Source of the DNA: a virus
Lineage: Duplodnaviria; Heunggongvirae; Uroviricota; Caudoviricetes
Virus record (IMG/VR): IMGVR_UViG_3300032030_000019
DNA: 64,000 nucleotides
Strand: one strand, 5' to 3'
Part shown: positions 1,001-54,630 of the stretch, in pieces
Layout: each line of letters starts with the position of its first letter
Position numbering within the stretch: position 1 is the first letter of the stretch
Made by a program: the position numbers and the translations under genes
The notes under the pieces: generated by a model
Databases searched by the model: none
What the model was told of the DNA's origin: nothing
Seen by the model: the letters and a program-made list of their open reading frames with translations, nothing else

Positions 1001-1237
1001 TTAGTTCCATAAATCTTCCGACTCCCAACCCTGATGTAAGTGCATTCCTAACAACGTTTGAAACGTAAACCAAAGTGAGGCGTTACGTGGACCCCCATTT
1101 AACGTTTCACCAACAAAACATAAATTTTCCTGATGGGGCATACAATACAGACATTTAACCCGATATCTAGTCATATGTGATGTCAATACATCTATCGTGC
1201 ATGTATCCCCAACGTTTACATCATACTTTATCCCCAT
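1001..1237 (-). CDS. hypothetical protein (78 aa)
   Basis: minus-strand ORF; start ATGGGGATAA overlaps upstream stop by 10 nt. Confidence 0.4.
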   Translation of the reverse strand: MGIKYDVNVGDTCTIDVLTSHMTRYRVKCLYCMPHQENLCFVGETLNGGPRNASLWFTFQTLLGMHLHQGWESEDLWN

Positions 1238-1539
1238 ACGTCTGAATCACCAATGTTGTTCCACACGTAGGTCTGAAGTTTGGTGAGATTAGTATGCATG
1301 TTTTCAGCTAAATCCCAGTTCGTACCTTCGCACAAAACGACTTGAGAGTCATCATCTACATAATTATATAGTGCCTTAAACTCCCACTCATCTATTACGG
1401 CGAACCTATGTGGACTTTGTGCTAACTTTACTTGGATAATTCTACGTGTATCCCCTATACATAAAGTCCTATTTTTGCTCATTGTATTATTCCGCATTGA
1501 CGTAACGTGAAGAAGAGAACTACAATGCCAAATATACAA
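1228..1539 (-). CDS. hypothetical protein, 'D-x-D-x-W-G' tail family
   Basis: C-terminal ...GDSDVWG shared with 4905..5189 and 1656..1889; true start probably the internal Met at about 1482 (MSKNRTL) coupled by ATGA to a small upstream ORF. Confidence 0.4.
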   Translation of the reverse strand: MYIWHCSSLLHVTSMRNNTMSKNRTLCIGDTRRIIQVKLAQSPHRFAVIDEWEFKALYNYVDDDSQVVLCEGTNWDLAENMHTNLTKLQTYVWNNIGDSDVWG

Positions 1540-1628
1540 CCAGCCAAAATAAGTCTAGCTATATCAGCGGTCCCATCTTTCTCACTATCACTTTCAGGAA
1601 ATAATTCGATTATATACTTTCGTCCCAT
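1480..1628 (-). CDS. small membrane peptide (49 aa, below the ORF-track cutoff)
   Basis: manual translation: MGRKYIIELFPESDSEKDGTADIARLILAGCIFGIVVLFFTLRQCGIIQ; one TM helix; stop overlaps the next ATG (ATGA). Confidence 0.25.
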
Positions 1629-1655
1629 ACACGCCTCCAACGTTTACATCATAAT

Positions 1656-1889
1656 CTAATCCCATATATCCCTGTCATAGCTGAATTGCCCCCAACGGTA
1701 GGTATTAAGTTTGGACTCGTCACTATAGGCGTTACCACTTAAATCCCACGAGGCGGGTTCACACCAAGTCACAAGACCAAATGTATATTCATATTGAACT
1801 AAAGCCTTGAGTTCCCAGAAATTCTCTACTACAGGTGCGACGTTGTGTTTTACTCCACGTATTATCTGAATATCACCAATGTCCATCAA
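1656..1889 (-). CDS. hypothetical protein (77 aa)
   Basis: ORF in the one-strand gene chain; C-terminal ...YDRDIWD resembles the D-x-W tail family. Confidence 0.4.
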   Translation of the reverse strand: MMDIGDIQIIRGVKHNVAPVVENFWELKALVQYEYTFGLVTWCEPASWDLSGNAYSDESKLNTYRWGQFSYDRDIWD

Positions 1890-2431
1890 ATTATTTTACA
1901 TTGGCACGAACGCATAACCTCAAGTGCAGCCTCATGTTTTTCCTTCGTTAGCCCAGCACACGCATCGGCCACGATAGTTACGTCCACACCTTCGATGGCT
2001 TTTATGGCCAACGCATTGGAAACGACGCAAATGTCAGTGCACGTACCAACCATCGTAACTGTTGAATGCGGCTCAATGAATGCACCCCACTTATCATATC
2101 CGAAGTGGGATTTATTGAGAATTGTATCATCTAACATAGGTGCCAACTCTTTTGTAATCTCCCAACCTTTAGTCTGATAGAGACAATGCGGCACAGGAAG
2201 ATACGTACCCTCTAACGTATTCAAATAATCTTCCTTGTGCGTGTCACGTGTGTAAATAATGTGATCACCACGTTTACGCGCCTCGCTTAACAACGTTTTA
2301 ATTTTGGGGATAATCTTCACTGCGTCCTCATTTGCGAGTGCCCCCGTTGTAAAATCGTTCTGCATATCAATAACCACAAAATATGCAGACGGTGTGTTTT
2401 CCTTTTCACTGCTTACTTTTTTTGTAAACAT
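1886..2431 (-). CDS. pncA: nicotinamidase / isochorismatase-family hydrolase (PncA-like)
   Basis: VVIDMQNDF (D-x-Q-N-D-F), DTH, catalytic-Cys motif VGTCTDICV; start set at the internal Met (MFTKK) with GAAGGAG SD right after the nadD stop. Confidence 0.75.
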   Translation of the reverse strand: MFTKKVSSEKENTPSAYFVVIDMQNDFTTGALANEDAVKIIPKIKTLLSEARKRGDHIIYTRDTHKEDYLNTLEGTYLPVPHCLYQTKGWEITKELAPMLDDTILNKSHFGYDKWGAFIEPHSTVTMVGTCTDICVVSNALAIKAIEGVDVTIVADACAGLTKEKHEAALEVMRSCQCKII

Positions 2432-2432
2432 A

Positions 2433-3053
2433 TTAGGCTCCTTCTTCCCTAAGATTTTTCGCATAAATTTTCACTAACTTCACACTCGATACATCAATCA
2501 AGTGCTGTAGCGATTTCCTCACTTCCGTTGCGCTTCCATCGCCGACGTATGCTACGTGTTCAACGTTTGTGCGTATGTTAATATTCTCAGACGTATACCC
2601 TGGACGATCCACTACAAGAATATCAGACTCACGTAGAATAACTTCATGTTTACGCCATAAGTGTAACATCTCGAAAGAGTCACCACCTATAACTGTTGTA
2701 AACGTATATTCGTTGCCCCATTTTTTCTTAACATCAAGTAACGTGTCAGCGAATCCACGTGTCGTATCCCTCAAATACGCAATTTCCATATCATCCACAA
2801 CTACGTTGCCCCAATTATCCGTAGCCTCACGTAACATAGCAACACGTTCAATGAAGTCAAAATTATATTCGTCTTCATCCTGTTTTTTACGATGCCATGT
2901 TACTGTAGTCGGAATGACCACTACCTGATCAAACCGATCCTTAAGCATCTCAATTATGCCTATATGTGTGGATGTGACAGGGTTAAATGTCCCACCATAT
3001 ATTGCTATTTTCATTCTAGTCTCCTGTTTACCATAATTTCTCCTGTTTACCAT
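2433..3053 (-). CDS. nadD: nicotinate/nicotinamide mononucleotide adenylyltransferase (NadD/NMNAT family)
   Basis: GGTFNPVTSTH (GGTFxPxHxGH-like), VIGGDSFEMLHLW...VVDRPGY, GSATEVRKSL match the NadD signature blocks; an alternative start is the Met of MKIAIYGG at 3014. Confidence 0.8.
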   Translation of the reverse strand: MVNRRNYGKQETRMKIAIYGGTFNPVTSTHIGIIEMLKDRFDQVVVIPTTVTWHRKKQDEDEYNFDFIERVAMLREATDNWGNVVVDDMEIAYLRDTTRGFADTLLDVKKKWGNEYTFTTVIGGDSFEMLHLWRKHEVILRESDILVVDRPGYTSENINIRTNVEHVAYVGDGSATEVRKSLQHLIDVSSVKLVKIYAKNLREEGA

Positions 3054-3412
3054 GATTCGACTCCAAAACCTATTCCCGGGTTGTAATATCCGTAATTCTT
3101 TTGGACCCCATATAATTCTATAAATATACCCAAATGTTCTGAAATCAAGTGACCGTCACACAGGTTCAACACAACCTCGTCCCGTGCTTCCCCTAAAAAT
3201 TGTCTACTATCATCATAGACCACAATACTAGCAAACAAATAGGTACCGACTTCTATTTTTTTCTTCATGTATTTACGCCCATGTATCCGTTTGCACCTTA
3301 AATGCACGATACGTTTTTGATGGATGTACCATGTCCGTACGTACGTGATAACTTTCATGTGGAAACGACCATTGATTACTACAGTCAGGGAAACGTAACA
3401 GGCCAAATTCAC
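3047..3412 (-). CDS. small protein, NPG-x-x-F...E-x-W tail family
   Basis: C-terminal YYNPGIGFGVESW; 7-nt stop/start overlap (ATGGTAA) with nadD. Confidence 0.5.
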   Translation of the reverse strand: MNLACYVSLTVVINGRFHMKVITYVRTWYIHQKRIVHLRCKRIHGRKYMKKKIEVGTYLFASIVVYDDSRQFLGEARDEVVLNLCDGHLISEHLGIFIELYGVQKNYGYYNPGIGFGVESW

Positions 3413-11393: not shown

Positions 11394-11660
11394 TTAAATG
11401 CCTCCTACTTCCACCCAAATGCTTCTGCGCTTATCAAAAGCTCCAGCACATAATACGTCAACAAATTCATGACTTCGTAGCCACTTCCAATCTGTAGCTA
11501 ACAATGCTCTTCCATTAACTCTTTCCTCACCAATTACTGATCCATTTGCTACAACCATAGACCCAGCAAAAAGAGCTGACCATTCATCAACGACATAATC
11601 ACAACCAATGTCTTTTAGTATGAATAGTCTCTTTGTTACAGGGGTTCCTTTTCTTTGCAT
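11394..11660 (-). CDS. hypothetical protein (about 88 aa)
   Basis: likely start ATG at 11660 (MQRKGT) with AAGGAG 8 nt upstream and a TAATG overlap with the preceding gene. Confidence 0.45.
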   Translation of the reverse strand: MQRKGTPVTKRLFILKDIGCDYVVDEWSALFAGSMVVANGSVIGEERVNGRALLATDWKWLRSHEFVDVLCAGAFDKRRSIWVEVGGI

Positions 11661-11878
11661 TACCACGTCTCCTTTTTAAATGGTAGTCCGGGGTTTAAGT
11701 ACCCACATGTGGGAGCTCCTATACCAACTATCCAATCCAAAAACTCTGTGATAATTACATTACGATGGTAATGCAACGACTTACTACAAAAGGATTGATC
11801 CCCACGCCAAAAGAGGGTGTGCTCATTATACAATTCAGTCAGATAGTATGATACTCCAATTTCTGAACTTGTTACCAC
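11660..11878 (-). CDS. small protein, NPG tail family (YLNPGLPFKKETW)
   Basis: conserved C-terminal tail; its Lys-Glu codons (AAGGAG) form the SD of the next gene. Confidence 0.5.
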   Translation of the reverse strand: MVTSSEIGVSYYLTELYNEHTLFWRGDQSFCSKSLHYHRNVIITEFLDWIVGIGAPTCGYLNPGLPFKKETW

Positions 11879-12087
11879 TTATCCTCCTTGAACCGAAAAC
11901 CCGGATTTAGAAAGCCATAAGCATGCTCGTTAGTAGCATACCTATGCGAAAACTCACCTATATACTCACTACTTTCAAGCTCTAAGAAAAAAGGGTCATC
12001 ATAGTCTATAGGAATACTATCATTACCTATTATCAAATCAATAAATATTGCTTGTAGATGCCATCTTGTGCCCACTTCCATCACCAC
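11872..12087 (-). CDS. small protein, NPG tail family (FLNPGFRFKEDKW)
   Basis: same tail and the same 7-nt overlap geometry. Confidence 0.5.
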   Translation of the reverse strand: MVMEVGTRWHLQAIFIDLIIGNDSIPIDYDDPFFLELESSEYIGEFSHRYATNEHAYGFLNPGFRFKEDKW

Positions 12088-12314
12088 ACCTCCGAGTCAA
12101 AGCTAAAGCCCGGATTGTAATGTGAGCGTTGTAGATTCATATGAAAATCGAACGTTTCATTGAACTCCAGGATAAATGACGAGCGGTTTTGATAGAGTAA
12201 GACGTCAATGTAATTACAATAAATGTAATAACAACCAAAGACGCCCTCTCCATCCTCAGACATGCTACGGCACAGATAGGAGTTACCAATTACGTTAGCG
12301 ATCACGTTTGTCAT
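12081..12314 (-). CDS. small protein, NPG tail family (YNPGFSFDSEVW)
   Basis: same tail; GGAGGTG SD and a TGATG overlap with the next gene. Confidence 0.5.
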   Translation of the reverse strand: MTNVIANVIGNSYLCRSMSEDGEGVFGCYYIYCNYIDVLLYQNRSSFILEFNETFDFHMNLQRSHYNPGFSFDSEVW

Positions 12315-13422
12315 TATTGCAACGTGAGCACAACATTTGGCAATTTTCTTCCACAGTACGTCCGCCCTTTGACCATGGCACTACGTGATCACCTTGCATG
12401 TCCTCAAACGTAAACTCACCACCACATATAGCGCACTTATGCCCCTGACGTTCATACATACGTCTCTTCATTTGTTCAGGGAACGTACGTATGGATAAGT
12501 ACTTCTCATCGTGAGTTGTACGTTCAGACAATATGTACGGAATTATACCTGTTTGTTTAGTTACATCCTCATCCATAACCAACTTATTTATGGTTTCACG
12601 TAATTCATTTGTGTTATATACGTGGCCATGATATTTGTTATAGAGTGTGCCCCAATCCTGATTCTCCGTTAACTTTTTCGGTACGTCAGGGAACATACGT
12701 TTGGCCCACGATATAACCTCTTGAAAGTACAACCACAATTCGTTGGCATCCACGTCATGCTGATGTAGGGCCATGTACTGTTCCAACGTTATGCCGTCAC
12801 GTTCAGCTATCCACGTCAATGCCTTTTCCAAATATTCCTGACGTATGGAGTTCGCCTTTACATACCCGTCTGACATTTGTGCCGCAGCGCACCCACGTTT
12901 ACTGAAATAACGTTTGGCGTCTGAGATGAACGTTCCGGCATACGTAGCGTTTAACAATTCTTGGTTTGTTAATGGTACACCTGCAATGTTTATAATCTTG
13001 AACCATGCCAAACGTTCCTCTGTTGTACCCTCACATATGTATACTGTAACCTCGTAATCAAGTATACGTTGCTGCTCAGTTTCGGTAAGGTTACGCATGT
13101 ATTTTTCATGTCCGTCAATTTTAATAGGGTACATATTCTCCAAATACTGACCTATTGAGATCGTACGTTGCTGTCCATCAATAACCTCATATTCTGAGTC
13201 TGACACTTTTGACCAATACATCGTGTTCAATGGGAAACCATTGTAAACTGAATTAATGACAGCTCTACGTTGTTGATCGTTATACACAAACTCACGCTGA
13301 TACATGGGGCGTACAGTTAACTTATGATCAGCATTGTAATACGTGAATACGCCATCATCTTTAAGATCTATATACCCCTCACATAGATCTCGTACTTTAA
13401 TTTTTGCTTCTGTTATCTTCAT
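12295..13422 (-). CDS. DUF262 (ParB/GmrS-like, DGQQR motif) + C-terminal HNH endonuclease fusion
   Basis: YQREF...VIDGQQRTISIGQYL (DUF262 hallmark) and C-terminal HKCAICGGEF...GDHVVPWSKGG...NCQMLCSRCNNDK (HNH); 26-nt overlap with the upstream methyltransferase. Confidence 0.7.
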   Translation of the reverse strand: MKITEAKIKVRDLCEGYIDLKDDGVFTYYNADHKLTVRPMYQREFVYNDQQRRAVINSVYNGFPLNTMYWSKVSDSEYEVIDGQQRTISIGQYLENMYPIKIDGHEKYMRNLTETEQQRILDYEVTVYICEGTTEERLAWFKIINIAGVPLTNQELLNATYAGTFISDAKRYFSKRGCAAAQMSDGYVKANSIRQEYLEKALTWIAERDGITLEQYMALHQHDVDANELWLYFQEVISWAKRMFPDVPKKLTENQDWGTLYNKYHGHVYNTNELRETINKLVMDEDVTKQTGIIPYILSERTTHDEKYLSIRTFPEQMKRRMYERQGHKCAICGGEFTFEDMQGDHVVPWSKGGRTVEENCQMLCSRCNNDKRDR

Positions 13423-14347
13423 CTTGTGCTCTCCTTTTAATTAAGATTCTAAAATACGGACATTGTCCATTAATGCTTAGATCTTTGTCATTGTTACCTT
13501 TACGAAATTTAATAATTTCAAATTGTTCAGGATTGTACTTATCTACAAAGGTGACGGGGACTCCCATAACTCCGTAATAATCTTTAGGAATCAGAGCTAT
13601 ATCTCCGACTCGTTCCTTCTTTTTGTTTGTTTTCCCGATATCAATGGCATCATAATTATCATATTTAGGGAATTTCATAGGGTCATATGTTTCCCATAAG
13701 ATGAGGTCTTCATGACGCTTTTGTATATCTAAGTTTGTAAACCAACGACATAACCCCGAAACTTTCTTTGTAGTTCCACTTGGTGTATCAAATTCATTAG
13801 GACTAGTATAACCTAACCATACTCGATTATCCTTGATTAACGGAAATATCTCTTTATAAGTTATGCTATTTTTATTTCCAACAATCAAAAACTTTTTATT
13901 ATATTTCATCAATAATTCTATATAGTCACGAAAAAGACTAAATGGTGGGTTAGTCACAATGATGTCAGCTTCCTTTAACAACTCAACACATTCTTCGCTT
14001 CTAAAATCTCCATTACCACTTAGAAACGATTGTGTACCAATATCAATATCATTATCATTACCGCCTTCGTATTCGAGTTTATATGAAAACTTATCGCGTT
14101 CATAATGCGTAGATATGAGTTTTTTTAACCCTAACAACTGAAATTTAAGGTGGAAGTATTTCCAAAAAGCAGATGTTGTTGGGTCATCGCAATTACAGAA
14201 TACGATCTTATTTTTGAAATGTTTGTCATAATGGCACAGTTCGTTGGATACATCATCTAATTTTGTATAAAATTCATCATTCTTTTCTTTCTTTGCCTTA
14301 TGTAAATTCTTATTACTCATGTTTATTACCCCTCCTATACTCACCAT
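13397..14347 (-). CDS. N6-adenine DNA methyltransferase, EcoRI-methylase-like
   Basis: IVTNPPFSLF (motif IV NPPF), KNDEFYT, KIVFCNCDDP, YYGVMGVPVTF...NPEQFEI; from memory this resembles M.EcoRI-family enzymes. Confidence 0.65.
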   Translation of the reverse strand: MVSIGGVINMSNKNLHKAKKEKNDEFYTKLDDVSNELCHYDKHFKNKIVFCNCDDPTTSAFWKYFHLKFQLLGLKKLISTHYERDKFSYKLEYEGGNDNDIDIGTQSFLSGNGDFRSEECVELLKEADIIVTNPPFSLFRDYIELLMKYNKKFLIVGNKNSITYKEIFPLIKDNRVWLGYTSPNEFDTPSGTTKKVSGLCRWFTNLDIQKRHEDLILWETYDPMKFPKYDNYDAIDIGKTNKKKERVGDIALIPKDYYGVMGVPVTFVDKYNPEQFEIIKFRKGNNDKDLSINGQCPYFRILIKRRAQDEDNRSKN

Positions 14348-14631
14348 GTCTCCTCATTAAATCTCCTAGCAGGATTATACCAACCAAGCCCATGTTTTAA
14401 GATACGGGAATCTAAGTAGAACTCACTACAGTACCACACATCAAAATCCCCACCCGCAGCTAAAGCTTCTGTAATACAATACAAAAGCTTCATGGGGATG
14501 TGGGGTTTAAGTATATACCATGTATCGTGATGATTCCATGCACTATGTTTTAGTAGTGAAGTACCAGGTTGTAGGATCTCCATGTGATTAAACGTATCCC
14601 CGACGTCCGCCATGATGTTTGTCTTACGCAT
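14341..14631 (-). CDS. small protein, NPG tail family (WYNPARRFNEETW)
   Basis: conserved tail; 7-nt overlap with the methyltransferase start. Confidence 0.5.
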   Translation of the reverse strand: MRKTNIMADVGDTFNHMEILQPGTSLLKHSAWNHHDTWYILKPHIPMKLLYCITEALAAGGDFDVWYCSEFYLDSRILKHGLGWYNPARRFNEETW

Positions 14632-14634
14632 GCC

Positions 14635-14997
14635 TTACGTACTCAAAACGTCTTCATTCACGTTTGCAAAATCGTCTGTACCATATGGACTACGTAAAGT
14701 AAAGTTTTTTCCGTTATACGTTTTTGCAGGACGTTTAGGTATATCCACATATTGCCAACGTTCTGCCCCATCGAATGACTGACGTTTAAGATACCAATCA
14801 TCCCCTACGATTAAAATATCATCCACAATCTCCTGTATGCCGTACCCACTATCATAATCAAGTACTGACGCGACATCCTTAAACGCGTCAATATCAAGTT
14901 CAATCTCACGTGTTCCAACCCAGCGTACATCATTCCACGTTTTGTGATTACGCGACAGCACATGATTTGTCTCGGTTAAAAAATTTATCATCTTCAT
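14635..14997 (-). CDS. hypothetical protein (120 aa)
   Basis: ORF. Confidence 0.45.
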   Translation of the reverse strand: MKMINFLTETNHVLSRNHKTWNDVRWVGTREIELDIDAFKDVASVLDYDSGYGIQEIVDDILIVGDDWYLKRQSFDGAERWQYVDIPKRPAKTYNGKNFTLRSPYGTDDFANVNEDVLST

Positions 14998-15177
14998 CTC
15001 CTTAATATATTGGATTACCCCATTGTGTGACGTCTATCTCGGCGTATTCAGATAAATCATGCATATTTGAACATATACCTCGAATGAGCTTCTCGAACTT
15101 CTCTTGATAAGATTCATCCTTCAGACCGTTATTCAGAATATCTTCATATAACTCATCGAATTCTTCATCTTCCATTT

Positions 15178-15483
15178 TTATACTCCTTCTGAAGGTGGTA
15201 ATGTCTTACATTTCAGTTTATTCTGAGTACATCCCTTACACGATTCACTACGTGTAGGATCGAGTTTGAGGTGTAGGTTAATAGGATCTTTAGCTGTGGT
15301 CATTCCTCGCAGACTCAGATATGGCACATCTTCTAAGTTAGGACTCCATGCCATTTTAACACCTAATCTCCGTAAATGTTGATCATCCACAAAACCTTCT
15401 ATCGTAACTATTTTTATAATCTCTTCTGTAAACGGACAATGTACATACAGATATATCATATTATGTCTCCTTAAAAAAAACAT
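15178..15483 (-). CDS. hypothetical protein (101 aa)
   Basis: ORF. Confidence 0.4.
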   Translation of the reverse strand: MFFLRRHNMIYLYVHCPFTEEIIKIVTIEGFVDDQHLRRLGVKMAWSPNLEDVPYLSLRGMTTAKDPINLHLKLDPTRSESCKGCTQNKLKCKTLPPSEGV

Positions 15484-15522
15484 ACGTTAGCGCCACGTAC
15501 GGCACTAACGTATATACACACG

Positions 15523-16509
15523 TCAGAACGAATAACGACCACTTGCTTCCATTTCACCCTTGATCCAATTACGAATACGGTGGAAATCATCTGAACCAAC
15601 GTAGGTCTCACGTAAGTTCTCAGGTACAGCCGACTCAAGTGAGAGGAACGTATTCATGATGTCCTGTGTATGTGAGAAGTATGCTGACGGACGTCCTTTC
15701 ATACCACCACGCTGTTCAGTCAGGAAGTCTATGATATCCTTACGTCGCTGCCAGAACTTATGCAAACGTTCAGCCTGTTCGTTTTCCAACAGTGAGCCCT
15801 CAAGTATCTCCTGTAAATGGTCAACCCAATACGTGTTCTTTACGTACAGACAATACAGAAGTACGCCTGTTTTGACATCATCGTATCGCCCAACGTTACG
15901 CCCAAACTTAAAGCTCAAGCCTGTTAACGTAAATGGCGACTCCGCGTTGTAACGTTCAAGTACCTCATACATTGCTTTCGTTACTGTCAACGGATCCCAG
16001 CCAACACGTGTGAACGATGCCACATTCTTAAGCACGGACGTCTCAGTCTGTGGCTTACGTAAGGCATCAGCAATTGAACGTTTACGCTGACGATCGATGG
16101 TCTCATATGCGTCATCACGTTCGCCCATACTTAATTGTACGACACACTCACCTGGTATATGTCCCCATACGTGTCGAATTGCCTCAAGACGATGCTGACC
16201 ATTCAACAGGACCCACGATTCTGATATTCCAATACCCTGCTCAGGTGCATATATCAATCCTGAGTTTACAAGACTATTTTCAAGTTTCTTTTTAGCATCT
16301 GCACTCATGGTACGATTAGCCTCATTACGTTCCAACAGTGCCTCGATAAGTGGAAGTGTCAGTTTTACAGCAGCCGTAACCACACCATTATACTCGGTTG
16401 CTATCCCATTTCCTGCATATTCCACTTTTTCGCCATCACAAAACAGTTCGGTGCCTCTTAACTCCAACTGATGTTTCTTAATGGTCTTTGAATTTCTAAC
16501 TACTCTCAT
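15523..16509 (-). CDS. DGQHR-domain protein (DndB/ParB-like nuclease-fold family)
   Basis: WVLLNGQHRLEAIRHVWG contains the (D/N)GQHR signature of the DndB/DpdB-like ParB-fold family. Confidence 0.55.
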   Translation of the reverse strand: MRVVRNSKTIKKHQLELRGTELFCDGEKVEYAGNGIATEYNGVVTAAVKLTLPLIEALLERNEANRTMSADAKKKLENSLVNSGLIYAPEQGIGISESWVLLNGQHRLEAIRHVWGHIPGECVVQLSMGERDDAYETIDRQRKRSIADALRKPQTETSVLKNVASFTRVGWDPLTVTKAMYEVLERYNAESPFTLTGLSFKFGRNVGRYDDVKTGVLLYCLYVKNTYWVDHLQEILEGSLLENEQAERLHKFWQRRKDIIDFLTEQRGGMKGRPSAYFSHTQDIMNTFLSLESAVPENLRETYVGSDDFHRIRNWIKGEMEASGRYSF

Positions 16510-16527
16510 TTTTGAGCTCCTTATATT

Positions 16528-16558
16528 AATTTATTTTATATTTTTTATTATATAACCC
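16528..16558 (-). promoter_or_regulatory. candidate sigma70-like promoter for the DGQHR gene
   Basis: minus-strand TATAAT at 16547..16552, about 30 nt upstream of AAGGAGCTCAAAAATG; weak -35 (TTCGGG). Confidence 0.3.
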
Positions 16559-16872
16559 GAATTTGATTCCCGAACACTATATCCGCCTTCTTCTAGCTCA
16601 TAGGCGTCCTCCTTTGATACAAAACCTCTGTATTCGATCTCGATAGGTTTATAGTGATCAGCCATATCAAGACAATTTTTTTAAACGTTCCCACACACTC
16701 ATGCTTGCCTCTTAAAAATTTTATCTATCCAACGTATCAGCTTGTCCAACCAACTTGCCTTGCCATATTTCCTACAACGGTTGATTCTGAATTCATCAAT
16801 AGACATCATTTTTTCTATTTTCCCTTTTGGTCTTTCTTGATACACTTGCATAGCCCCTCCTCATACAAGCTT

Positions 16873-17256
16873 CTATATCCACCTTTTCTTACGTGTCCAT
16901 GTCATCGGTCGTAAACACGGGAACGCCTCCGTGAACTGACTTAAATGTTTAGTTGTAGTAGCCGATAGATAACGTGGCCATAACGCGAGATCTGTATCCA
17001 CCCATAGCTCCGTTCCATCGCTATTTAAATGCCACTTATTTGACAGTGTGATGATAGGTGTGCTGTATGAAATTAATGTGACCTCTTCAGAACCCGTATC
17101 TTCTAACTGTCGTCTTTTCATAACAGCTTTTCGTCTGGCTCCGCCTGCTTCTTTCGTTTTGTATGTTTTAGTTTTCCAATCATATCTTTGGATATAAAAT
17201 GGCTCATACCCATACCATTTTGCCTCAGATAGCGTCCAATACATATACTGTCCCAT
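16873..17256 (-). CDS. hypothetical protein (127 aa)
   Basis: ORF with AAGGAG SD. Confidence 0.45.
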   Translation of the reverse strand: MGQYMYWTLSEAKWYGYEPFYIQRYDWKTKTYKTKEAGGARRKAVMKRRQLEDTGSEEVTLISYSTPIITLSNKWHLNSDGTELWVDTDLALWPRYLSATTTKHLSQFTEAFPCLRPMTWTRKKRWI

Positions 17257-17258
17257 AC

Positions 17259-17570
17259 CTACTCCTTTGGCCTGTTTTTATATTCTTTCCATTGTTGCAT
17301 ACGTTCTTCCTCCGTAAGTTTAACTTTTTCATCCGTAAGTTCAACGTTTGGATTTACGTGTTGCTTTGCTACGAACATATCACATAAATATGCGTCACCC
17401 ACGTAAGCATCTAAGTAATCACAACGTCCAAACATAATGTGATCACAATTCGCACAACACGTCGAACTACGCCTATAATGAACTTTGTCTTTTAATAAGG
17501 CTTCCACTTGCTGACGTAATCTCTCATTCTCCGCACGTAACTGTTCTATCGTTTCCATTATGCCCTCCAC
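17259..17570 (-). CDS. hypothetical protein, coiled-coil plus Cys cluster
   Basis: N-terminal coiled coil (IEQLRAENERLRQQVEALLK), then CCANCDH...GRCDY...LCD. Confidence 0.4.
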   Translation of the reverse strand: MEGIMETIEQLRAENERLRQQVEALLKDKVHYRRSSTCCANCDHIMFGRCDYLDAYVGDAYLCDMFVAKQHVNPNVELTDEKVKLTEEERMQQWKEYKNRPKE

Positions 17571-18190
17571 GTATCAGCATCCACATCAAACAATTGACGC
17601 TTATTCATTGGTCGTAATGTTGTTAATGTGTGTCCATCCACAAACTTATAGAACACATCCCCCAACGTCTCACTTACGAACAAACGTCTGCCATTATCCC
17701 CGTATTCATCCCCGTCAAACACATAGAGCACGTGCTGTTCGTAGTCTTCAAAATTATCCCACAACGTTGACATGCGTACACCAACGTCAAGCTCGTATAC
17801 GTATGGTGACATCGGGTCTACGTTGGCTGGACTTCCACAACGTTCGCTCTCACGCATCACGTCTAGTGTGTTGTCTATTGCATACTCTATATCACTATCC
17901 TCCAAAGATGAATAATTACTAAGTTCATCAGTGAGATCATCTAAAAACATTCGTTGTAAGTGTGGATTACTATGAAACTCGTCAATCTTAAATGGTAGGT
18001 CGTGATCTTCTTCATTATACCCATCGAAATATCTGTCTTCAAGTTCAGCCAGACAATCCGTAGCCACCCAATATTGATATGCAATAACATTCGGATGAAA
18101 CAGATTAATAGCGTTAGAGTTTTCTGATTTTTCTTGCACCCTCCATCCACTATCACCAACAGGGATTTGTTCTCGTTCCCATCTTGTCAT
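17558..18190 (-). CDS. acidic hypothetical protein (210 aa)
   Basis: GAGGAGG SD; preceded by the conserved intergenic motif. Confidence 0.45.
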   Translation of the reverse strand: MTRWEREQIPVGDSGWRVQEKSENSNAINLFHPNVIAYQYWVATDCLAELEDRYFDGYNEEDHDLPFKIDEFHSNPHLQRMFLDDLTDELSNYSSLEDSDIEYAIDNTLDVMRESERCGSPANVDPMSPYVYELDVGVRMSTLWDNFEDYEQHVLYVFDGDEYGDNGRRLFVSETLGDVFYKFVDGHTLTTLRPMNKRQLFDVDADTWRA

Positions 18191-27866: not shown

Positions 27867-28988
27867 TTATCCTTTCAAAACCATTCTAGCTTGTTCTGCA
27901 TTTTCAAAGATGCACTCCTTGCCGTTTATGATTATCTTAACTTTATTGTTAGAAGAAGTATTGTTGACTTTTACATCTACATTTACTTCAATCTTTGGTT
28001 CTGACGTTTCCTCAGGTTTAACACGGAACTCGAACCTCTCATCGTCAAAATACTCAGGTTTTATAGTTACCATTTTAATCCCAGGACAAAGATCTCCCCA
28101 TTCATTCGTTGAGCTTCGTCGTATCTGAATAGGCTTGTCCTCCTTGAAATACGCCCATTTAACCTCATAGTTTGGGTCGTAGTAGGCGAATCTATAGTAT
28201 CCTGCGCTACCTTGAAGACAAAAGGGATACACATCGCTCTCTGAGTAGTGTGATAGTGTGCCCATCTCGCTAGGTCCTTTATGATGAATCGCCCTTTGAA
28301 GGGTTTCTATATAATCACCACAAAACACTTTTTTCCCACGCAACACCTCATCCCATTCAAAATGTACGAATTTTGAATTGTATAAGTTCACTTCTTTTCT
28401 CTTTTCGGTGTTGTTCGTTTCAGTCATATTAACCTCCTTTTTTGGTCTCCTAGTTATAGCACAATCAGAATCGACTATTCCTTCCGGTCTAATCTCTAAC
28501 TGTGCGGGTATTGAAATATTTTTCAGGTTAGAACAACCAAAGAATACATGGCTACCAATACTTGTTACGCTATCGGGTATCGTGATACGAGTTAGACTGT
28601 TGCAATACTTGAATGCTAGATCACCTATATTCGTCACACTGTCAGGTATAACCACATTCATCAAACTGTAGCAGTCTCTGAATGCATTATCGCCTATGTT
28701 CATCACGCTGTCAGGCATCGTCACACTCGTCAAGCCAGTGCAGCCATAGAATGCATAGTCACCAACAATTGTTACTCCGTCCTTTATTACGACTGACTCA
28801 ATCTGCTGACACCCGTAGAATAGGAAATCGGGAACCACGCTATTCTTGCCCGTATTTATGACTACTTCCTTGATGTCATAATACCCCACTAGACCATTAT
28901 AAGCTGGTCCACTAACACCTTCGAACGACCAGATTACTAGCCGATCATCGTCTATACAGAAATCGTTCTTTATTCTAAGAATACCCAT
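27867..28988 (-). CDS. BspA-type leucine-rich-repeat protein
   Basis: tandem units of about 23 aa (IPDSVTNIGDLAFKYCNSLTRIT / IPDSVTSIGSHVFFGCSNLKNIS); start set at MGILRIK with AGGAGG 6 nt upstream. Confidence 0.7.
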   Translation of the reverse strand: MGILRIKNDFCIDDDRLVIWSFEGVSGPAYNGLVGYYDIKEVVINTGKNSVVPDFLFYGCQQIESVVIKDGVTIVGDYAFYGCTGLTSVTMPDSVMNIGDNAFRDCYSLMNVVIPDSVTNIGDLAFKYCNSLTRITIPDSVTSIGSHVFFGCSNLKNISIPAQLEIRPEGIVDSDCAITRRPKKEVNMTETNNTEKRKEVNLYNSKFVHFEWDEVLRGKKVFCGDYIETLQRAIHHKGPSEMGTLSHYSESDVYPFCLQGSAGYYRFAYYDPNYEVKWAYFKEDKPIQIRRSSTNEWGDLCPGIKMVTIKPEYFDDERFEFRVKPEETSEPKIEVNVDVKVNNTSSNNKVKIIINGKECIFENAEQARMVLKG

Positions 28989-29030
28989 TTTACGCCTCCT
29001 ATTGCTACGCAACCGTTTCGCTCACGCTCA

Positions 29031-34104: not shown

Positions 34105-35340
34105 TCAACCTCTTGTCCCTTCAGCAAATCTATTTTTTTTAATATGCACTCTTTTCGGAAATGCATTTTCCCCGATTAATACTCCACTGGGTATAGTTAC
34201 ACTCGTCAGTTGAGTACAATCCTCGAATGCATAATCACCAATGCTCATTACACTGTCAGGTATTGTTACACTCGTCAGTCTGCTACAACACAAGAATGCA
34301 CCACTGCCTATGTCTGTCACGCTGTTACCTATTGTTACACTCGTCAGACCATCACAGCCACTGAATGCATAATCACCTATGCTTGTCACGCTGTCAGGTA
34401 TTGTTACACTCGTCAGACCATCACAGCCACTGAATGCATAATCACCTATGCTTGTCACGCTGTCAGGTATTGTTATGCTCGTCAGACCGATACAGCCACT
34501 GAATGCATAATCACCTATGCTTGTCACATTACTCGGTATCGTCACACTCGTCAGGCCGCTGCAGTTATAGAATGCATGGCTGCCTATGCTCGTCACACTG
34601 TCTCCTATCGTCACACTCGTCAGACCATCACAGCCACTGAATGCATAATCACCTATGCTTGTCACACTGTCAGGTATTGTTATACTCGTCAGACTACTAC
34701 AACCGTTGAATGCATGGTTGCTTATACTCGTCACGCTGTCAGGAATAATCAAGTCTGTAACAAGCTTTCCATCCACCTCAAGTTGGTAGGTGAAATTAAA
34801 AGGCCAAGGAGCCCAGTGAATGTGACACCATTGCTCGATAGTCCCCTTATATTTTATTAGGAGGGACTGATTTAACAATGCATTCTCCCCAATATAGCTA
34901 ACAGTATCTGGGATCACGACACTGTCATTTTTCATATATGAGATCAATCCAAAGGGTAGATACACAATCCCTTTCATGAAGACCTTGTATCTTTTTTCCT
35001 CAAACTTGGGGCCTTCATCCTTGTCCCAACCGAGGCTATTTACTTCCTTGACCTCTTGAAGATACTCATCCAGGATCTGGGTATCATTTAAAACATAATC
35101 CTTCCACTCTATTACATTGGAGTATGGAAGTTTGTATCTGTTTTTATAGAGGAGTCCCCAATTATACTCCTCAAGGTTTTGATGTTTTGCCCTGTTCATT
35201 ACAGAGAGAGCAGTGGTTCTGTTAATTGTCTCCATCTTTTGGATCTTGGCTTTTTCTTTGTCAAACTCCTTCATACCCGGCGTCCTCCTTAACAAACACT
35301 TACGTCCGACATAACGCAAGAGAGGTTTTACGGAACCCAT
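34105..35340 (-). CDS. BspA-type leucine-rich-repeat protein with near-identical tandem repeats
   Basis: at least 9 consecutive units of 23 aa (IPDSVTSIGDYAFSGCDGLTSVT) encoded by near-identical 69-bp repeats. Confidence 0.7.
   Translation of the reverse strand: MGSVKPLLRYVGRKCLLRRTPGMKEFDKEKAKIQKMETINRTTALSVMNRAKHQNLEEYNWGLLYKNRYKLPYSNVIEWKDYVLNDTQILDEYLQEVKEVNSLGWDKDEGPKFEEKRYKVFMKGIVYLPFGLISYMKNDSVVIPDTVSYIGENALLNQSLLIKYKGTIEQWCHIHWAPWPFNFTYQLEVDGKLVTDLIIPDSVTSISNHAFNGCSSLTSITIPDSVTSIGDYAFSGCDGLTSVTIGDSVTSIGSHAFYNCSGLTSVTIPSNVTSIGDYAFSGCIGLTSITIPDSVTSIGDYAFSGCDGLTSVTIPDSVTSIGDYAFSGCDGLTSVTIGNSVTDIGSGAFLCCSRLTSVTIPDSVMSIGDYAFEDCTQLTSVTIPSGVLIGENAFPKRVHIKKNRFAEGTRG
34190..34770 (-). repeat. 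69-bp near-identical tandem repeats (coding; LRR units)
   Basis: e.g. ccatcacagccactgaatgcataatcacctatgcttgtcac... recurs almost verbatim at a 69-nt period; this also explains the spurious plus-strand ORF 34210..34860. Confidence 0.8.
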
Positions 35341-39194: not shown

Positions 39195-42100
39195 CTACCC
39201 TGCAAGTAGCTTATTAGCAATATCTACAGGATATATTTTTGATGGATTATCACGTATATGAAGACTCTGTTTATTTTGAGCCTTCTCCTCATCATCCTCC
39301 ATTCCTGGTATTAAATGTTCATCCCATCGCTTTACCTTGTCAAAATACGATGGAATACCCAATGGCTTTGTTGCAGTTTCAATACCACGTACGTGACGAT
39401 TTACCTTAAATTTTACAGTACGTATATACGGACTCAAAAACTCAGGATAATCACAAATATAATGTGGTTTCGCACGTGGCCCACCTGTTGGGTTCTTAAT
39501 GAACTCGCCGATAGGATCCACTAACCCTTTATCAGGATTATCCGTTATCTCATCCTCAAGTATTGTAATATCAGGCTCAGTCAAATATGTAAAGACATAA
39601 TCCACAGAACCTTTTGGACCTGAGATCTTACCTTCCATTGTCTCAACATCAAGAGAATACGACATATGCTCACATGAATTGTACAAAATATCCAAGTCAT
39701 ATTTAAAGTCGATGCCATACTTCTCGAAAATGTACTTGCGGAAGTAGTTGCGATAACATATGTCGGCTTCAAACAAGTCACGTATAGGCAAGTTATTCTG
39801 ATTTGAGTCATGTATAACGCTTTCAGCACTAACGTCAATATCCAACGCACGTATGTTCATAATAGACAATTCAAAGCCCTCGTTCGCAACAACAGACGCA
39901 TTTCCCTGATTACCATAATTAACGGCCGTCGTAAATGCGTCGTCTTTGTCTCCATGTAAACGATCCCCTAAGAACGTTTCAATTTCACCCGTTTGCTGTA
40001 AATAATGAAGTTTGTGCTGACGTAAACGGTCAACTTCCCTCCACGTACCAAACATAGCACGCTTCATCTCTGTCACACGTTCCGTAGTTACACCCGCACG
40101 TGCAGCTAACCCTGCATCTCCTTGCCCATATATCGATGAAATCATACATGTTTTGGCAATCCCTCGATATTTAGCTTTAAAGTCGGGGTCGTTAACGTGA
40201 TCAGGCCACGTAATCTTCGCAAGCTCCATATACGCATCTTTGCCTGAGTTGTATATATCCATAAATACAGGATCATGGGATATATAACAAATTGAACGTG
40301 GCTCCATTTGTGATACGTCGAAATACGTTTTTATACGTCCTGGCTCTACGATAAGGCACTTCATTGTGTCGCTGTGTGGCAAGAACGTATGGTAGCCTGA
40401 CGTACATCGCTTTGTTGCCAACGTATTCATCGCGAACGTTGGCACATACGTATCTTTCGGACCATTATCAGAAAAATAGCCTGAATGTACACCTGGATAA
40501 AAGATCTTATGTTTACCGTTAAGTATGTTTTTCAGGTACGTATTCAGCTCTTTACTTGCTACTGACGCAAAATCCGTAAGAAAGCCAAGTTTTGCAAGAA
40601 GTTGGTACGTATCATCAGGAAGTTCAGTCGTCATATTGTTACGAGGTTCATCAAATAAATACTGAAAATATTCCTCAGCAAAAGTAACCCCGTCGCTAAT
40701 AAACTCCTTTTTCCATACGGCTGGCTCACGTTTCATAATAGACACACGTCCACCTTCTTCGCGTGAGTAGTAACTTCCTATTTCTACTTCAGGCATAAAC
40801 AAGTCTAATGCATCTGACTGGTTCAGTAAGTCTATTTTACTTTCAAAGACGGTTAGTAGTTCACGTATCTTTTCAGGTGTACGTTCGACATTGTTCGCCT
40901 TGATGTATTGCCACGTAGAGTACATAACAAGATAGTTATCCCTATATTCGTGTTTCAACATAGCACCGAAGATCTCAGGAAATTGATCGTTCGAGCTGTA
41001 CTTACATACTTTCTCAAAATACAGCTTATCTCGTCCTTCATAGATTGTACCAACGAACGGGTCCTCTGTTACACGTATATGTTCATCAAATCTTGTAATT
41101 TCTTCAGCACACGCACGTAAACGCAAATAACGATATGCGGATATTTCAGGATGTGTAATGCCGTCAAACTCCTCTGCAACAGCTTTAGGCACAATAGTAG
41201 ATAGATCGAACTGTAAATAGTAATCATCATCTAAATCCCGTAAATCATAAACCTGAGCAAGAGTGGATACCTGTTTCTTGGGTTCAAATATGGTCACCTC
41301 ATTATGCACTTCCTCCAATAACCATCTCAAGTTATTTTCAGGTATGTCTTCCGCAACACCATGAGTCGTTACACCCAAATCTATACTCACTTTCTTAAAA
41401 CGTGAACATAACGTATCATATAACGTAACCGTCACATCTTTCTTGCCCCTCTTCGTTTGCGCCTCAATTTTCGTCCCGTACTTTTTATACCATGCACGTG
41501 CAACATCGATTGCGATCCATGCGTCTTCCATACGTATATACTTTTGTAAAGGCGACCACATATACGTTAAACCTGCGTTCTTAATATACTCTTTTAACGC
41601 AATATAAACGTCAGCCACTATAAATCGATTAAACGACTCCACAAGTTCAGACAAATGTATCATAGTCTGTATAAACTTACCGATAGGTTCAGCTGTCTTT
41701 TTCTTACGTGTATACGAATCAAGCCCCTGTGACATAGCTTCTTCGTCTAAAACAGAAGAAACCTCATCACTTACGTCATATCCGAACATGTCATTCAAGA
41801 ACGTACTCGGAATATTCCAGTCAGGCTTTTTCGGACACAGTCTTCCTAACAGTATCTTTGTGATCTTCATTGGATCAGCTTGGCATACCTCAGGATATTC
41901 GGCTATAATACGTAAAGTCTGTTTAGGTATCTCGATTGTACACCACTTATTCTGCTTCATATACGAACGTAGGAAGATCTTATTCAATAAAATCTCGTAG
42001 TTACTACATATGTTTTGGCAATATTTCGCATACTTTGTGGCTTTCTCAACATCTACCTTGATCCCTGACATTTTTAATTCCATGCCCAGATATTTATTGA

Positions 42101-43319
42101 ACAAGAACACAGGATAACAGTTAGAACCGTAAGCGGGGAATAACTTCTCTGCCAATTTCACACCATAAAAGGCATCATAGCAGCAATATACACCCAGTTT
42201 TTCAGGATCACAAGCATACCAATCAGAATACTCATCCCAATAGTTGCTAAGAAGGTTAAAGAGATGTCCATTGTTATTTTTTACATCCTGTACGTAAAAT
42301 TCGCATGCATCAATATACGTTTGTGGCAATTTCTCTTTCGGATCCAACACCTGTCTTACGTTATCCTCTTGATCTAAACAGAAGTACAACGCGGACTTAA
42401 ATGAAGCAAACGTAGGATGCTGCGCACGTATGGCTTTTATGTATGCCTGTTCAGTACTCAACGTATCATTCCATGATGGTGCATGTAGGTAATACTGTAC
42501 GTTATACTTAAGTGAGTGTTTTTGATCGTCAGCTGTTGTAAGGGCGTACGCATCCTGAATGTAGTAGAAACGTTGGTACATTCTGTACAGAACCATCATT
42601 TCAAACGCACAGTTATACGCCCATACGTTTGCAGCATGCGTATCCATATATTGTTTGAACTTAATCATGAATTGTGACGCAAAGAACATACTGTCAGGTG
42701 TTTGTTTGGACTCATCGTAATCGAAATCCTTACGAAAATCAAAGAAATATGCGGTATCTTTAAGTGATAACGCAAATCCTGAAATCCTAAAATCCTCATC
42801 TTCAGGAAATCCAGCTGTCTCAAAGTCCAATCCTACCCACGTAGTTTTATCGGGCATAAATACTGTCTCAATTATACGTGTGCCTTCCTTCAGCCCAACG
42901 CAAATCGTCTCAGGCAAGAACGTATGTCCACCTTCCACCCCATCAGACAAGAAGTATGTGTATTTTGAATCCACCAATACATCCTCATCTACGGAAGGTT
43001 TGGTTCCAAATACGAGTACGTTCTTGCCTATATGGATTGACGGTAGGGCTGTAAATGAGGCATATGTAAACTTACGTAAACCTATGTGTATTTTTAATGC
43101 CCGATGTAATTCCAATAGTTTATCATATATTTTACGCCCATACGCAAGGAATACGTTATTCTCAGACGTTTGTATTAAATTAAAAAACGTATCCTCATCT
43201 ATCAACTCAATTGTACCCTCAGGAAGAGTTGAATAATGATTTTTAATTCCTCGATGTAAACCTTGTTTATCTTTTACAATATAGCGCATGTTATAATCCT
43301 TTAGAAAAGTTGTGAGCAA
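39195..43319 (-). CDS. family A DNA polymerase with 3'-5' exonuclease domain (1374 aa)
   Basis: Exo I motif GLDFETAG; motif A DVSQMEPR; motif B RGIAKTCMISSIYGQG (R..AK....G..YG); motif C VIHDS. Confidence 0.85.
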   Translation of the reverse strand: MLTTFLKDYNMRYIVKDKQGLHRGIKNHYSTLPEGTIELIDEDTFFNLIQTSENNVFLAYGRKIYDKLLELHRALKIHIGLRKFTYASFTALPSIHIGKNVLVFGTKPSVDEDVLVDSKYTYFLSDGVEGGHTFLPETICVGLKEGTRIIETVFMPDKTTWVGLDFETAGFPEDEDFRISGFALSLKDTAYFFDFRKDFDYDESKQTPDSMFFASQFMIKFKQYMDTHAANVWAYNCAFEMMVLYRMYQRFYYIQDAYALTTADDQKHSLKYNVQYYLHAPSWNDTLSTEQAYIKAIRAQHPTFASFKSALYFCLDQEDNVRQVLDPKEKLPQTYIDACEFYVQDVKNNNGHLFNLLSNYWDEYSDWYACDPEKLGVYCCYDAFYGVKLAEKLFPAYGSNCYPVFLFNKYLGMELKMSGIKVDVEKATKYAKYCQNICSNYEILLNKIFLRSYMKQNKWCTIEIPKQTLRIIAEYPEVCQADPMKITKILLGRLCPKKPDWNIPSTFLNDMFGYDVSDEVSSVLDEEAMSQGLDSYTRKKKTAEPIGKFIQTMIHLSELVESFNRFIVADVYIALKEYIKNAGLTYMWSPLQKYIRMEDAWIAIDVARAWYKKYGTKIEAQTKRGKKDVTVTLYDTLCSRFKKVSIDLGVTTHGVAEDIPENNLRWLLEEVHNEVTIFEPKKQVSTLAQVYDLRDLDDDYYLQFDLSTIVPKAVAEEFDGITHPEISAYRYLRLRACAEEITRFDEHIRVTEDPFVGTIYEGRDKLYFEKVCKYSSNDQFPEIFGAMLKHEYRDNYLVMYSTWQYIKANNVERTPEKIRELLTVFESKIDLLNQSDALDLFMPEVEIGSYYSREEGGRVSIMKREPAVWKKEFISDGVTFAEEYFQYLFDEPRNNMTTELPDDTYQLLAKLGFLTDFASVASKELNTYLKNILNGKHKIFYPGVHSGYFSDNGPKDTYVPTFAMNTLATKRCTSGYHTFLPHSDTMKCLIVEPGRIKTYFDVSQMEPRSICYISHDPVFMDIYNSGKDAYMELAKITWPDHVNDPDFKAKYRGIAKTCMISSIYGQGDAGLAARAGVTTERVTEMKRAMFGTWREVDRLRQHKLHYLQQTGEIETFLGDRLHGDKDDAFTTAVNYGNQGNASVVANEGFELSIMNIRALDIDVSAESVIHDSNQNNLPIRDLFEADICYRNYFRKYIFEKYGIDFKYDLDILYNSCEHMSYSLDVETMEGKISGPKGSVDYVFTYLTEPDITILEDEITDNPDKGLVDPIGEFIKNPTGGPRAKPHYICDYPEFLSPYIRTVKFKVNRHVRGIETATKPLGIPSYFDKVKRWDEHLIPGMEDDEEKAQNKQSLHIRDNPSKIYPVDIANKLLAG

Positions 43320-43837
43320 ATGTCATTATACTCTTGCCATATTTTGGTATTATGTAAGGGCTTACGTAATGCCTCACATATGCCTTTGTAATACCACCCC
43401 TGATCCACTTTACCTCGGTTGAACTTGGTCCAAACTATATCACCTTTCGTGTTAACTTCTTTGAGTAATGAACGTACGTTAGATAATTTATCAGCTAAGC
43501 AAATCATCTGTACGTCATGACTTTCTTTAGGTAATTGTGAGATCGTATGCAATTTACGTTGCTCCCACGTTTTTGTTTTATCTTCAGACTCAGCTTGTAC
43601 TAACTGCAATACGTACGGTCCGAATAAGTTCTTGATCTGTGCTGACGTAGTAGACGTATCCTCAAGTGTGTCATGAAGTAAGCCCGCAATTTGCACCAAC
43701 TCAGGTTCACCATTCTCACGTAATATACGTGCCACCTCAAGTGGGTGCACAATATACGGCTCACCTGTTGACTTACGTTGTTGCCCTTTATGAGCTTCGG
43801 TAGCAAATTTTTCTGCTTTTATATATAAATCTGTCAT
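43301..43837 (-). CDS. RelA/SpoT-type HD-domain (p)ppGpp hydrolase (small alarmone hydrolase)
   Basis: EAHKGQQRKSTGEPYIVHPLEVARIL...IAGLLHDTLEDT, the canonical SpoT HD signature. Confidence 0.75.
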   Translation of the reverse strand: MTDLYIKAEKFATEAHKGQQRKSTGEPYIVHPLEVARILRENGEPELVQIAGLLHDTLEDTSTTSAQIKNLFGPYVLQLVQAESEDKTKTWEQRKLHTISQLPKESHDVQMICLADKLSNVRSLLKEVNTKGDIVWTKFNRGKVDQGWYYKGICEALRKPLHNTKIWQEYNDICSQLF

Positions 43838-54435: not shown

Positions 54436-54630
54436 TTAAATTTTATATTCTTTTCGGTCCTCGAACTCTTGTGCTCTACCTTTGTTCCAATTTTTAATAG
54501 CCCGATAATACCCAACGATGCGAGAATATACCTCGGTCTCTTGGTCTCTCTTGCCATCAAGTATGTCTTTACGTCGTTGTTCTAGATCGGCTAAGCGATC
54601 TGTAAGTTCTTGTTTACTTGCTACTCGCAT
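54436..54630 (-). CDS. nrdD: glycyl-radical domain of NrdD encoded as a separate, overlapping ORF
   Basis: SRIVGYYRAIKNWNKGRAQEFEDR matches the RxxGYxxxxxxxNxGK glycyl-radical tail of NrdD, but lies in the -1 frame, overlapping the nrdD stop by 10 nt. Confidence 0.6.
   Translation of the reverse strand: MRVASKQELTDRLADLEQRRKDILDGKRDQETEVYSRIVGYYRAIKNWNKGRAQEFEDRKEYKI

Follow-up and report, generated by a model that had tools for sequence, protein, structure and literature searches.

A putative mobile restriction-modification cassette pairing an EcoRI-family methylase with a DUF262-HNH nuclease in an uncultured rumen phage

Restriction-modification (R-M) systems encoded by viruses are known from chloroviruses (CviAII and others) and from phage P1 (EcoP1I), and in each case the virus carries a self-protecting methylase together with a nuclease able to degrade unmethylated host or competitor DNA. 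In the EcoRI system of Escherichia coli plasmids, the nuclease R.EcoRI has the PD-(D/E)XK fold and belongs to a protein family unrelated to the nuclease described here. According to the sequence of a 64,000-nucleotide (nt) stretch of DNA from a virus of the Caudoviricetes (IMG/VR record IMGVR_UViG_3300032030_000019; the whole stretch is referred to as the window), an EcoRI-family methylase gene overlaps the gene for a nuclease in which a DUF262 domain, known from GmrSD, BrxU, SspE and DndI, is joined to an HNH domain. The pair is read here as a mobile, conventional (modification-blocked) R-M cassette, with a probability of roughly 0.8. Its parts, with positions in the window, are as follows.

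12295-13422, minus strand: predicted restriction endonuclease of the pair, 375 amino acids (aa); PF03235 and PF01844, PDLC03418.
13397-14347, minus strand: predicted EcoRI-family N6-adenine DNA methyltransferase, longest open reading frame (ORF) of 316 aa, probable start at 14320; PF13651, PDLC03297, NPPF motif.
13397-13436, minus strand: coupling region, with the nuclease Shine-Dalgarno (SD) sequence AAGGAG at 13436-13431, the nuclease ATG at 13422-13420 and the 26-nt overlap.

The reading as a modification-blocked R-M system was adopted because the nuclease is almost never found without the methylase and because small plasmids tolerate the pair. In 14 of 15 loci from GTDB genomes (the fifteenth had 838 bp of upstream sequence, too little to judge), the methylase gene lay directly upstream of the nuclease gene and in the same orientation; these loci span Clostridia, Bacilli, Chloroflexota, Synergistales, Melainabacteria/Vampirovibrio, Vicinamibacteria and Alphaproteobacteria. 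Among viruses, a relative of the nuclease turned up on at least 155 IMG/VR contigs; 80 of these loci were examined, and the methylase-then-nuclease order was found in 78. The pair was also present in all three GenBank phage records (gp07/gp08 of Flavobacterium phage vB_FspS_laban6-1, and the unannotated phage contigs MT835503 and MT838873), and carriage by viruses is common for this cassette family. Among plasmids with a full-length nuclease, an adjacent methylase was found in essentially all 43, including the 7.5-kb Ligilactobacillus agilis plasmid pLa3_1, whose four annotated genes are those for a MerR regulator, the methylase, the DUF262 protein and rep. The closest metagenomic homologues (67-69% identity) were paired with a methylase in all cases examined and are located in Gram-positive contexts resembling integrative and conjugative elements (ICE-like), with Cna_B and Ltp lipoprotein genes; these neighbourhoods point tentatively to a host and a donor among the Bacillota. 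The family of the nuclease is very large: every one of the 8000 candidates scored fell at E<=1e-10, many of them 60-69% identical, and the number of proteins reaching this threshold is above 8000.

In some loci the two genes were 1.2-2.6 kb apart, and the inserts appeared incidental. A third cassette component encoded between the separated genes was considered and rejected, since what lies between them is optrA on a plasmid of Enterococcus dispar, and in locus L009 an unrelated ORF of 189 aa. The optrA gene (oxazolidinone/phenicol resistance) lies between methylase and nuclease at 1164-3131 of locus L031 (E. dispar plasmid pK205-4b-C), and a similar gap of ~2.6 kb was observed on the Enterococcus hirae plasmid NZ_CP088184.

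The nuclease carries VIDGQQRTISIGQYL and HKCAIC...GDHVVPWSKGG...CSRCNNDK. Its N-terminal part was matched by Pfam GmrSD_N (PF03235, DUF262; E 5.6e-20, aa 36-161, with DGQQR) and its C-terminal part by Pfam HNH (PF01844; E 4.9e-14, aa 330-375), and no DUF1524 (PF07510) was detected in the protein by Pfam, the only HNH matches being PF01844 and PF14279. Against PADLOC-DB, residues 1-372 of 375 were matched by the REase_II profile PDLC03418 ('Type II restriction enzyme', E 5.2e-121). In an AlphaFold2 model (predicted local distance difference test score, pLDDT, 82.8) the protein was divided into three parts, an α/β N-terminal domain (~aa 1-160), an all-helical middle (~164-310) and a ββα HNH domain (316-375). 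Across 43 homologues Q42, R43 and D82-G83-Q84-Q85-R86 were invariant, as were the HNH/zinc residues C330, C333, C365, C368, D345, H346, N360 and N369, the CCCC zinc site being typical of classical HNH. Because of this invariance, both the nucleoside triphosphate (NTP)-binding-type motifs of the DUF262 domain and the HNH active site are judged to be intact.

The methylase was matched by Pfam EcoRI_methylase (PF13651, E 4e-104) and, over its full length, by the PADLOC-DB profile MTase_II PDLC03297 ('Type II methyltransferase', E 3.3e-108), and it contains KNDEFYT, NPPF (motif IV) and YYGVMGVPVTF...NPEQFEI. It is thus predicted to be a full-length EcoRI-family enzyme, and M.EcoRI, encoded by the EcoRI plasmid of E. 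coli, was 50% identical to it over aa 9-306; a sequence search of the PDB with the methylase gave no match. The real start is more likely the ATG at 14320 (307 aa) than position 14347, because an AGGAGG SD sequence (14336-14331) precedes it, alignments of homologues start close to residue 10 of the long ORF, and it was the start picked by one gene caller.

The 3' end of the methylase gene and the 5' end of the nuclease gene share 26 nt (13397-13422), and the AAGGAG sequence at 13436-13431, 8 nt upstream of the nuclease ATG at 13422, lies within the 3' end of the methylase gene. The nuclease start and the overlap are considered real because 42 homologues were aligned with the nuclease from residue 1, M1 and I3 being invariant; both genes have canonical, strong SD sequences. 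An earlier annotation by a model that saw only the letters and their ORFs (the first-pass annotation) had described these ORFs, motifs and the 26-nt overlap, had named the proteins as an EcoRI-like methylase and a DUF262-HNH protein, and had proposed translational coupling. All of this was confirmed: the ORF coordinates agree, the matches to PF13651, PF03235 and PF01844 are far beyond chance, and coupling is supported by the SD sequence inside the methylase gene together with the homologues that start at residue 1.

As in Type II R-M systems, separate and adjacent restriction endonuclease and methylase genes were found, with an endonuclease profile match on one side and motif IV with a full-length fold on the other. 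By the proposed mechanism, the methylase would place N6-methyladenine (m6A) on a short target sequence, and the nuclease would be translated by coupling from the SD sequence inside the methylase gene. The HNH active site would cut DNA that lacks the methyl mark, and the DUF262 domain (ParB/Srx), in which the QR and DGQQR motifs are intact, is likely to bind an NTP and to gate this cleavage or direct it, by analogy with BrxU, GmrSD and SspE. The phage itself would be protected, its packaged DNA being already methylated and its replicating DNA hemimethylated, and unmethylated host DNA and the DNA of co-infecting phages would be cut. The benefit to the phage would be the breakdown of host DNA, the exclusion of competitors or superinfecting phages, or both, by analogy with the chlorovirus and P1 systems. 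The data show the domain identities, the intact catalytic residues, the coupling, the synteny conserved across hosts and the accessory status of the pair; protection by methylation, the involvement of an NTP, the target site and the benefit to the phage are what we infer.

The target sequence was approached through the composition of the window and the relationships of the methylase. GAATTC occurs at 19 sites against 25.2 expected (observed/expected ratio, O/E, 0.76; z -1.2), in agreement with the first-pass statement that the site is present and not avoided; this non-depletion is uninformative because the genome would methylate itself. In a neighbour-joining tree, M.EcoRI was nested among methylases linked to DUF262-HNH nucleases, and no clearly hypervariable recognition segment was seen in the methylase alignment and its conservation profile; this suggests that the methylases of the group have related specificities, the tree leaving the motif itself unspecified. 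A published pipeline for transferring motifs between methylases uses a threshold of 80% identity, and GAATTC specificity is not transferable to the methylase of the window because 50% identity to M.EcoRI is too low. Two tandem EcoRI-family methylases were found upstream of the nuclease in loci L004 and L005 (2743-5011; Clostridia and Bacilli metagenome-assembled genomes), which argues against one uniform palindromic site; the target of that variant could be asymmetric. For the window pair, a target with an AATT core or resembling GAATTC is plausible.

Other features of composition were also recorded. GGCC is strongly depleted in the window (50 observed, 97 expected; O/E 0.51), which suggests pressure from a HaeIII-type restriction system of the host, and ACGT is enriched (626 observed, 515 expected; O/E 1.22). 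TACGTA (76 copies) was rejected as a signal, since 86 copies are expected from lower-order composition and the copies are dispersed with no flanking consensus. Regarding base modification, a MazZ-like dATP/dGTP diphosphohydrolase domain (PF18909) forms the N-terminal part of one window protein, and two others have HD domains (61955-62479, 59525-60145 and 43301-43837 for the three); together they resemble part of the toolkit for Z-genomes (2-aminoadenine). Neither a PurZ or DpdA domain nor a hydroxymethylase domain was detected in the window ORFs of at least 90 aa or in the gene calls covering the ~10 kb beyond the high-coordinate end, and an effect of a Z-genome or other hypermodification on the R-M pair was therefore set aside.

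Several points weigh against reading the pair as a modification-blocked R-M cassette. DUF262 domains otherwise come from modification-dependent or modification-sensing nucleases (GmrSD, BrxU, SspE, DndI), and the sensing polarity assumed here was deduced solely from synteny. The intact DGQQR and QR motifs of NTP-binding type mean that the pair possibly departs from the NTP independence of Type II systems, and NTP gating, if true, would make the 'Type II' label only approximate. A literature search, with REBASE outside its scope, returned no biochemistry on, and no name for, the combination of a DUF262-HNH nuclease with an EcoRI-family methylase, and the PADLOC label 'REase_II' may go back to a characterised enzyme or only to a REBASE prediction. 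In the palindrome statistics no A-containing palindrome was significantly depleted in the window, so that the recognition site was not revealed, as is expected if the genome methylates itself. Of the two exceptional viral loci, L075 has no methylase within 4 kb upstream of the nuclease, and in L112 the order of the two genes is reversed. Any benefit to the phage is speculative. Locus L112 is an unrelated 116-kb viral contig (IMGVR_UViG_3300028888_000074) from the same metagenome as the window phage, and its copy of the cassette, with the methylase downstream of the nuclease, is 44% identical.

Three other explanations were weighed against these data. The leading idea of the first-pass annotation was that the methylase is a stand-alone anti-restriction enzyme and the DUF262-HNH protein an independent GmrSD-like Type IV nuclease directed against competing phages whose DNA is modified. 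In its favour, phages often carry orphan methylases, and DUF262 with DGQQR is common to GmrSD, BrxU and SspE; the two genes are, however, almost never apart in bacteria, plasmids and viruses, an arrangement that an independent Type IV enzyme would not need, and the nuclease was matched over its full length by a Type II endonuclease profile. Of the features of the GmrSD family, the DUF262 domain with DGQQR is present, DUF1524 is not, and the genomic context is not that of a stand-alone nuclease. Since the protein is without DUF1524, is ~200 aa shorter than BrxU (375 aa against ~580 aa) and is tied to a methylase, it is placed outside the GmrSD family. With one conserved cassette, a Type II profile and no DUF1524, the leading idea did not hold and is considered very unlikely, and the alternative offered beside it, in which the phage carries an R-M module that acts on unmodified DNA, is favoured by the synteny in bacteria, plasmids and phages.

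The pair could also be a modification-dependent weapon, in which the methylase marks host DNA, the nuclease cuts only m6A-marked DNA and the phage escapes through another base modification. DUF262 nucleases are typically modification sensors, and the MazZ-like domain and HD-domain proteins hint at manipulation of the nucleotide pool, but on the small plasmids and bacterial chromosomes where the pair is found such a combination would kill its carrier, and the PurZ, DpdA or hydroxymethylase domain that might provide the escape was not detected in the ORFs and gene calls covered above; this explanation is held to be extremely improbable. Finally, R-M cassettes are known as selfish mobile units, and the pair could have entered the phage from a mobile element of Gram-positive bacteria, as a selfish passenger or a partly decayed cassette that brings the phage no benefit, the nuclease being silent or a homing-type HNH enzyme. 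The ICE-like Gram-positive contexts of the closest homologues would fit this, as would the related phages that do without the pair; against it, both ORFs are intact with good SD sequences, all invariant residues are kept, and the number of viral contigs with a nuclease relative, with the methylase upstream in nearly all loci examined, suggests recurrent retention in viruses. A passenger of this kind is regarded as unlikely.

The position of the R-M cassette in the phage genome was examined by comparison with three related phage contigs (L023, L024 and L025). These share with the window a gene for an NGQHR protein (66-68% identity), the three genes upstream of it (window 16873-17256, 17259-17570 and 17558-18190) and the phrog_3972 gene (window 14635-14997), and SSB is also shared by L023, the one related contig that extends far enough. 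At the syntenic position the R-M pair is absent from all three. Between the NGQHR and phrog_3972 genes the related phages carry a radical-SAM gene of ~300 aa (L023 11412-12332, L024 11827-12732, L025 10233-11138), and in the window phage this slot is occupied by other small genes, with the R-M pair slightly further on. The pair is bordered by small paralogues.

14341-14631, minus strand: small paralogue of 96 aa, C-terminal ...YNPARRFNEETW, directly upstream of the cassette and forming the left border of the slot, from alignment with the three downstream paralogues.
12081-12314, 11872-12087 and 11660-11878, minus strand: three tandem small paralogues directly downstream of the cassette and forming the right border, from alignment and junction sequences.

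The four small paralogues (71-96 aa) all end in NPG(F/L)xFxxExW, so that the R-M pair sits within their array, and none of the four was matched by Pfam or PHROG. Consecutive members overlap by 7 nt (GTGGTGA/GTGGTAA-type), the downstream gene starting in the last codons of the upstream ORF; the ORF at 12081-12314 was called by neither gene caller. The NGQHR gene is thus retained in related phages that do not have the pair, and the pair itself lies inside the paralogue array; it is accordingly taken as an accessory insertion, placed where the early-region genes are hypervariable.

The NGQHR gene itself is separated from the methylase gene by four small ORFs.

15523-16509, minus strand: NGQHR protein of 328 aa (LLNGQHRLEA; phrog_5931), a probable backbone gene outside the R-M module.

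The first-pass annotation had linked this protein, as a DGQHR (DndB-like) protein, to the pair, and the link was not supported: the protein has no Pfam match, does not co-occur with the pair and is kept in phages without it. No Pfam family was matched even at E<=10, no NCBIfam or PADLOC match was obtained, and neither the single sequence nor a profile matched the PDB; the only match was phrog_5931, of unknown function. Close homologues are limited to a handful of related phage contigs. By an exhaustive HMMER scan ~100 distant relatives of 250-300 aa were collected, with the consensus N.NR...DGQHRL.AI...ID...KRS.AD, and among 40 sampled relatives no ParB/DGQHR-type Pfam family was matched; alignment of the NGQHR protein with the DUF262 alignment by hhalign gave a probability of 0.7%. 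The N-terminal half of the protein would probably have a ParB/Srx fold, a tentative assignment. An NGQHR protein was found beside the R-M pair in 0 of 80 viral loci and 0 of 15 genome loci, and its neighbours in the window are small unknown phage genes, with no Dnd or Dpd domain among window ORFs of at least 90 aa. Membership of the DndB/DpdB family (PF14072/TIGR03187) was rejected for 15523-16509, there being no profile match and no dnd or dpd cluster. The protein is best regarded as a backbone protein of the phage lineage and not as part of the R-M module.

The source of the window is an uncultured rumen phage of ~133 kb. The ~21 kb around the gene pair that were compared in each case are 100% identical to contigs of ~132-134 kb from rumen-type metagenomes (JGI 3300028888, Logan SRR9006805 and ENA ERZ27257205), and four contigs in the JGI, Logan and ENA data encode a protein identical to the nuclease. 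All genes of the window are on the minus strand, and they include phage replication and nucleotide-metabolism genes, namely those for a family-A DNA polymerase, a DnaB-like helicase, SSB and an intein-containing NrdD. No match was obtained when positions 12000-17000 were compared with GenBank phages by megablast, the window phage having no close relative there, and no integrase domain was found among ORFs of at least 90 aa in the window, which covers roughly half the genome. NrdD, the anaerobic ribonucleotide reductase (1192 aa, 54621-58199), is split by the intein (PF14890), and the polymerase ORF (39195-43319) is unusually long (1374 aa), polymerase profiles matching its C-terminal ~200 aa only. 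Paralogous proteins at 27867-29012 and 34105-35340 match the same PHROGs (18805 and 35892) and are probably the BspA-type leucine-rich-repeat (LRR_5, E 2.8e-76) pair of the ORF set; BspA-type proteins of this kind are unusual cargo for a phage replication region.

The pair is assigned to endonuclease and EcoRI-methylase profile families that are already catalogued, and for the window the outcome is a clean annotation as a standard mobile R-M cassette, with which the NGQHR gene is not to be grouped. For the cassette family, the outcome is the joining of a DUF262 NTPase-type domain, otherwise found in modification-dependent nucleases, to a protective methylase. Biochemical work on one member, addressing its target site, its need for an NTP and its pattern of cleavage, would give thousands of genes an annotation and would also show whether the DUF262 sensor works in both polarities. 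In a wider and more tentative proposal, DUF262-HNH nucleases with EcoRI-family methylases could form a widespread NTP-gated restriction class, in which a ParB/Srx sensor of reversed polarity licenses HNH cleavage of m6A-free DNA and a lytic rumen phage uses it to destroy the DNA of its host or rivals; we think this rather unlikely as a whole. Such an enzyme would parallel SspE, doing for m6A what SspE does for phosphorothioate.

Compared with the EcoRI system, the window pair has a homologous methylase (50% identity) and the same organisation as a two-gene Type II-style cassette on mobile DNA, whereas the gene order in EcoRI is nuclease then methylase, and here it is methylase then a nuclease of DUF262-HNH type. 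With GmrSD and BrxU (Type IV) and with SspE and DndI (phosphorothioate-linked), the window nuclease has the DUF262 domain in common; it differs from them in its classical zinc-bound HNH domain (PF01844) in place of DUF1524, in being ~200 aa shorter, in having an m6A methylase as partner and in its presumed logic, by which DNA without modification, and not DNA with it, would be cut. The enzyme families of the chlorovirus and P1 systems are different from those found here, and a like function in the window phage is presumed by analogy. The same cassette is found in Flavobacterium phage laban6-1, MT835503 and MT838873, with 37-48% identity for the nuclease and 36-44% for the methylase, in phages of other lineages and hosts. 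The overlap of the two genes is 4 nt in laban6-1, against 26 nt in the window, and the laban6-1 pair forms a reverse-oriented insert among tail genes, whereas the window pair is co-directional with the early-gene array in which it lies.

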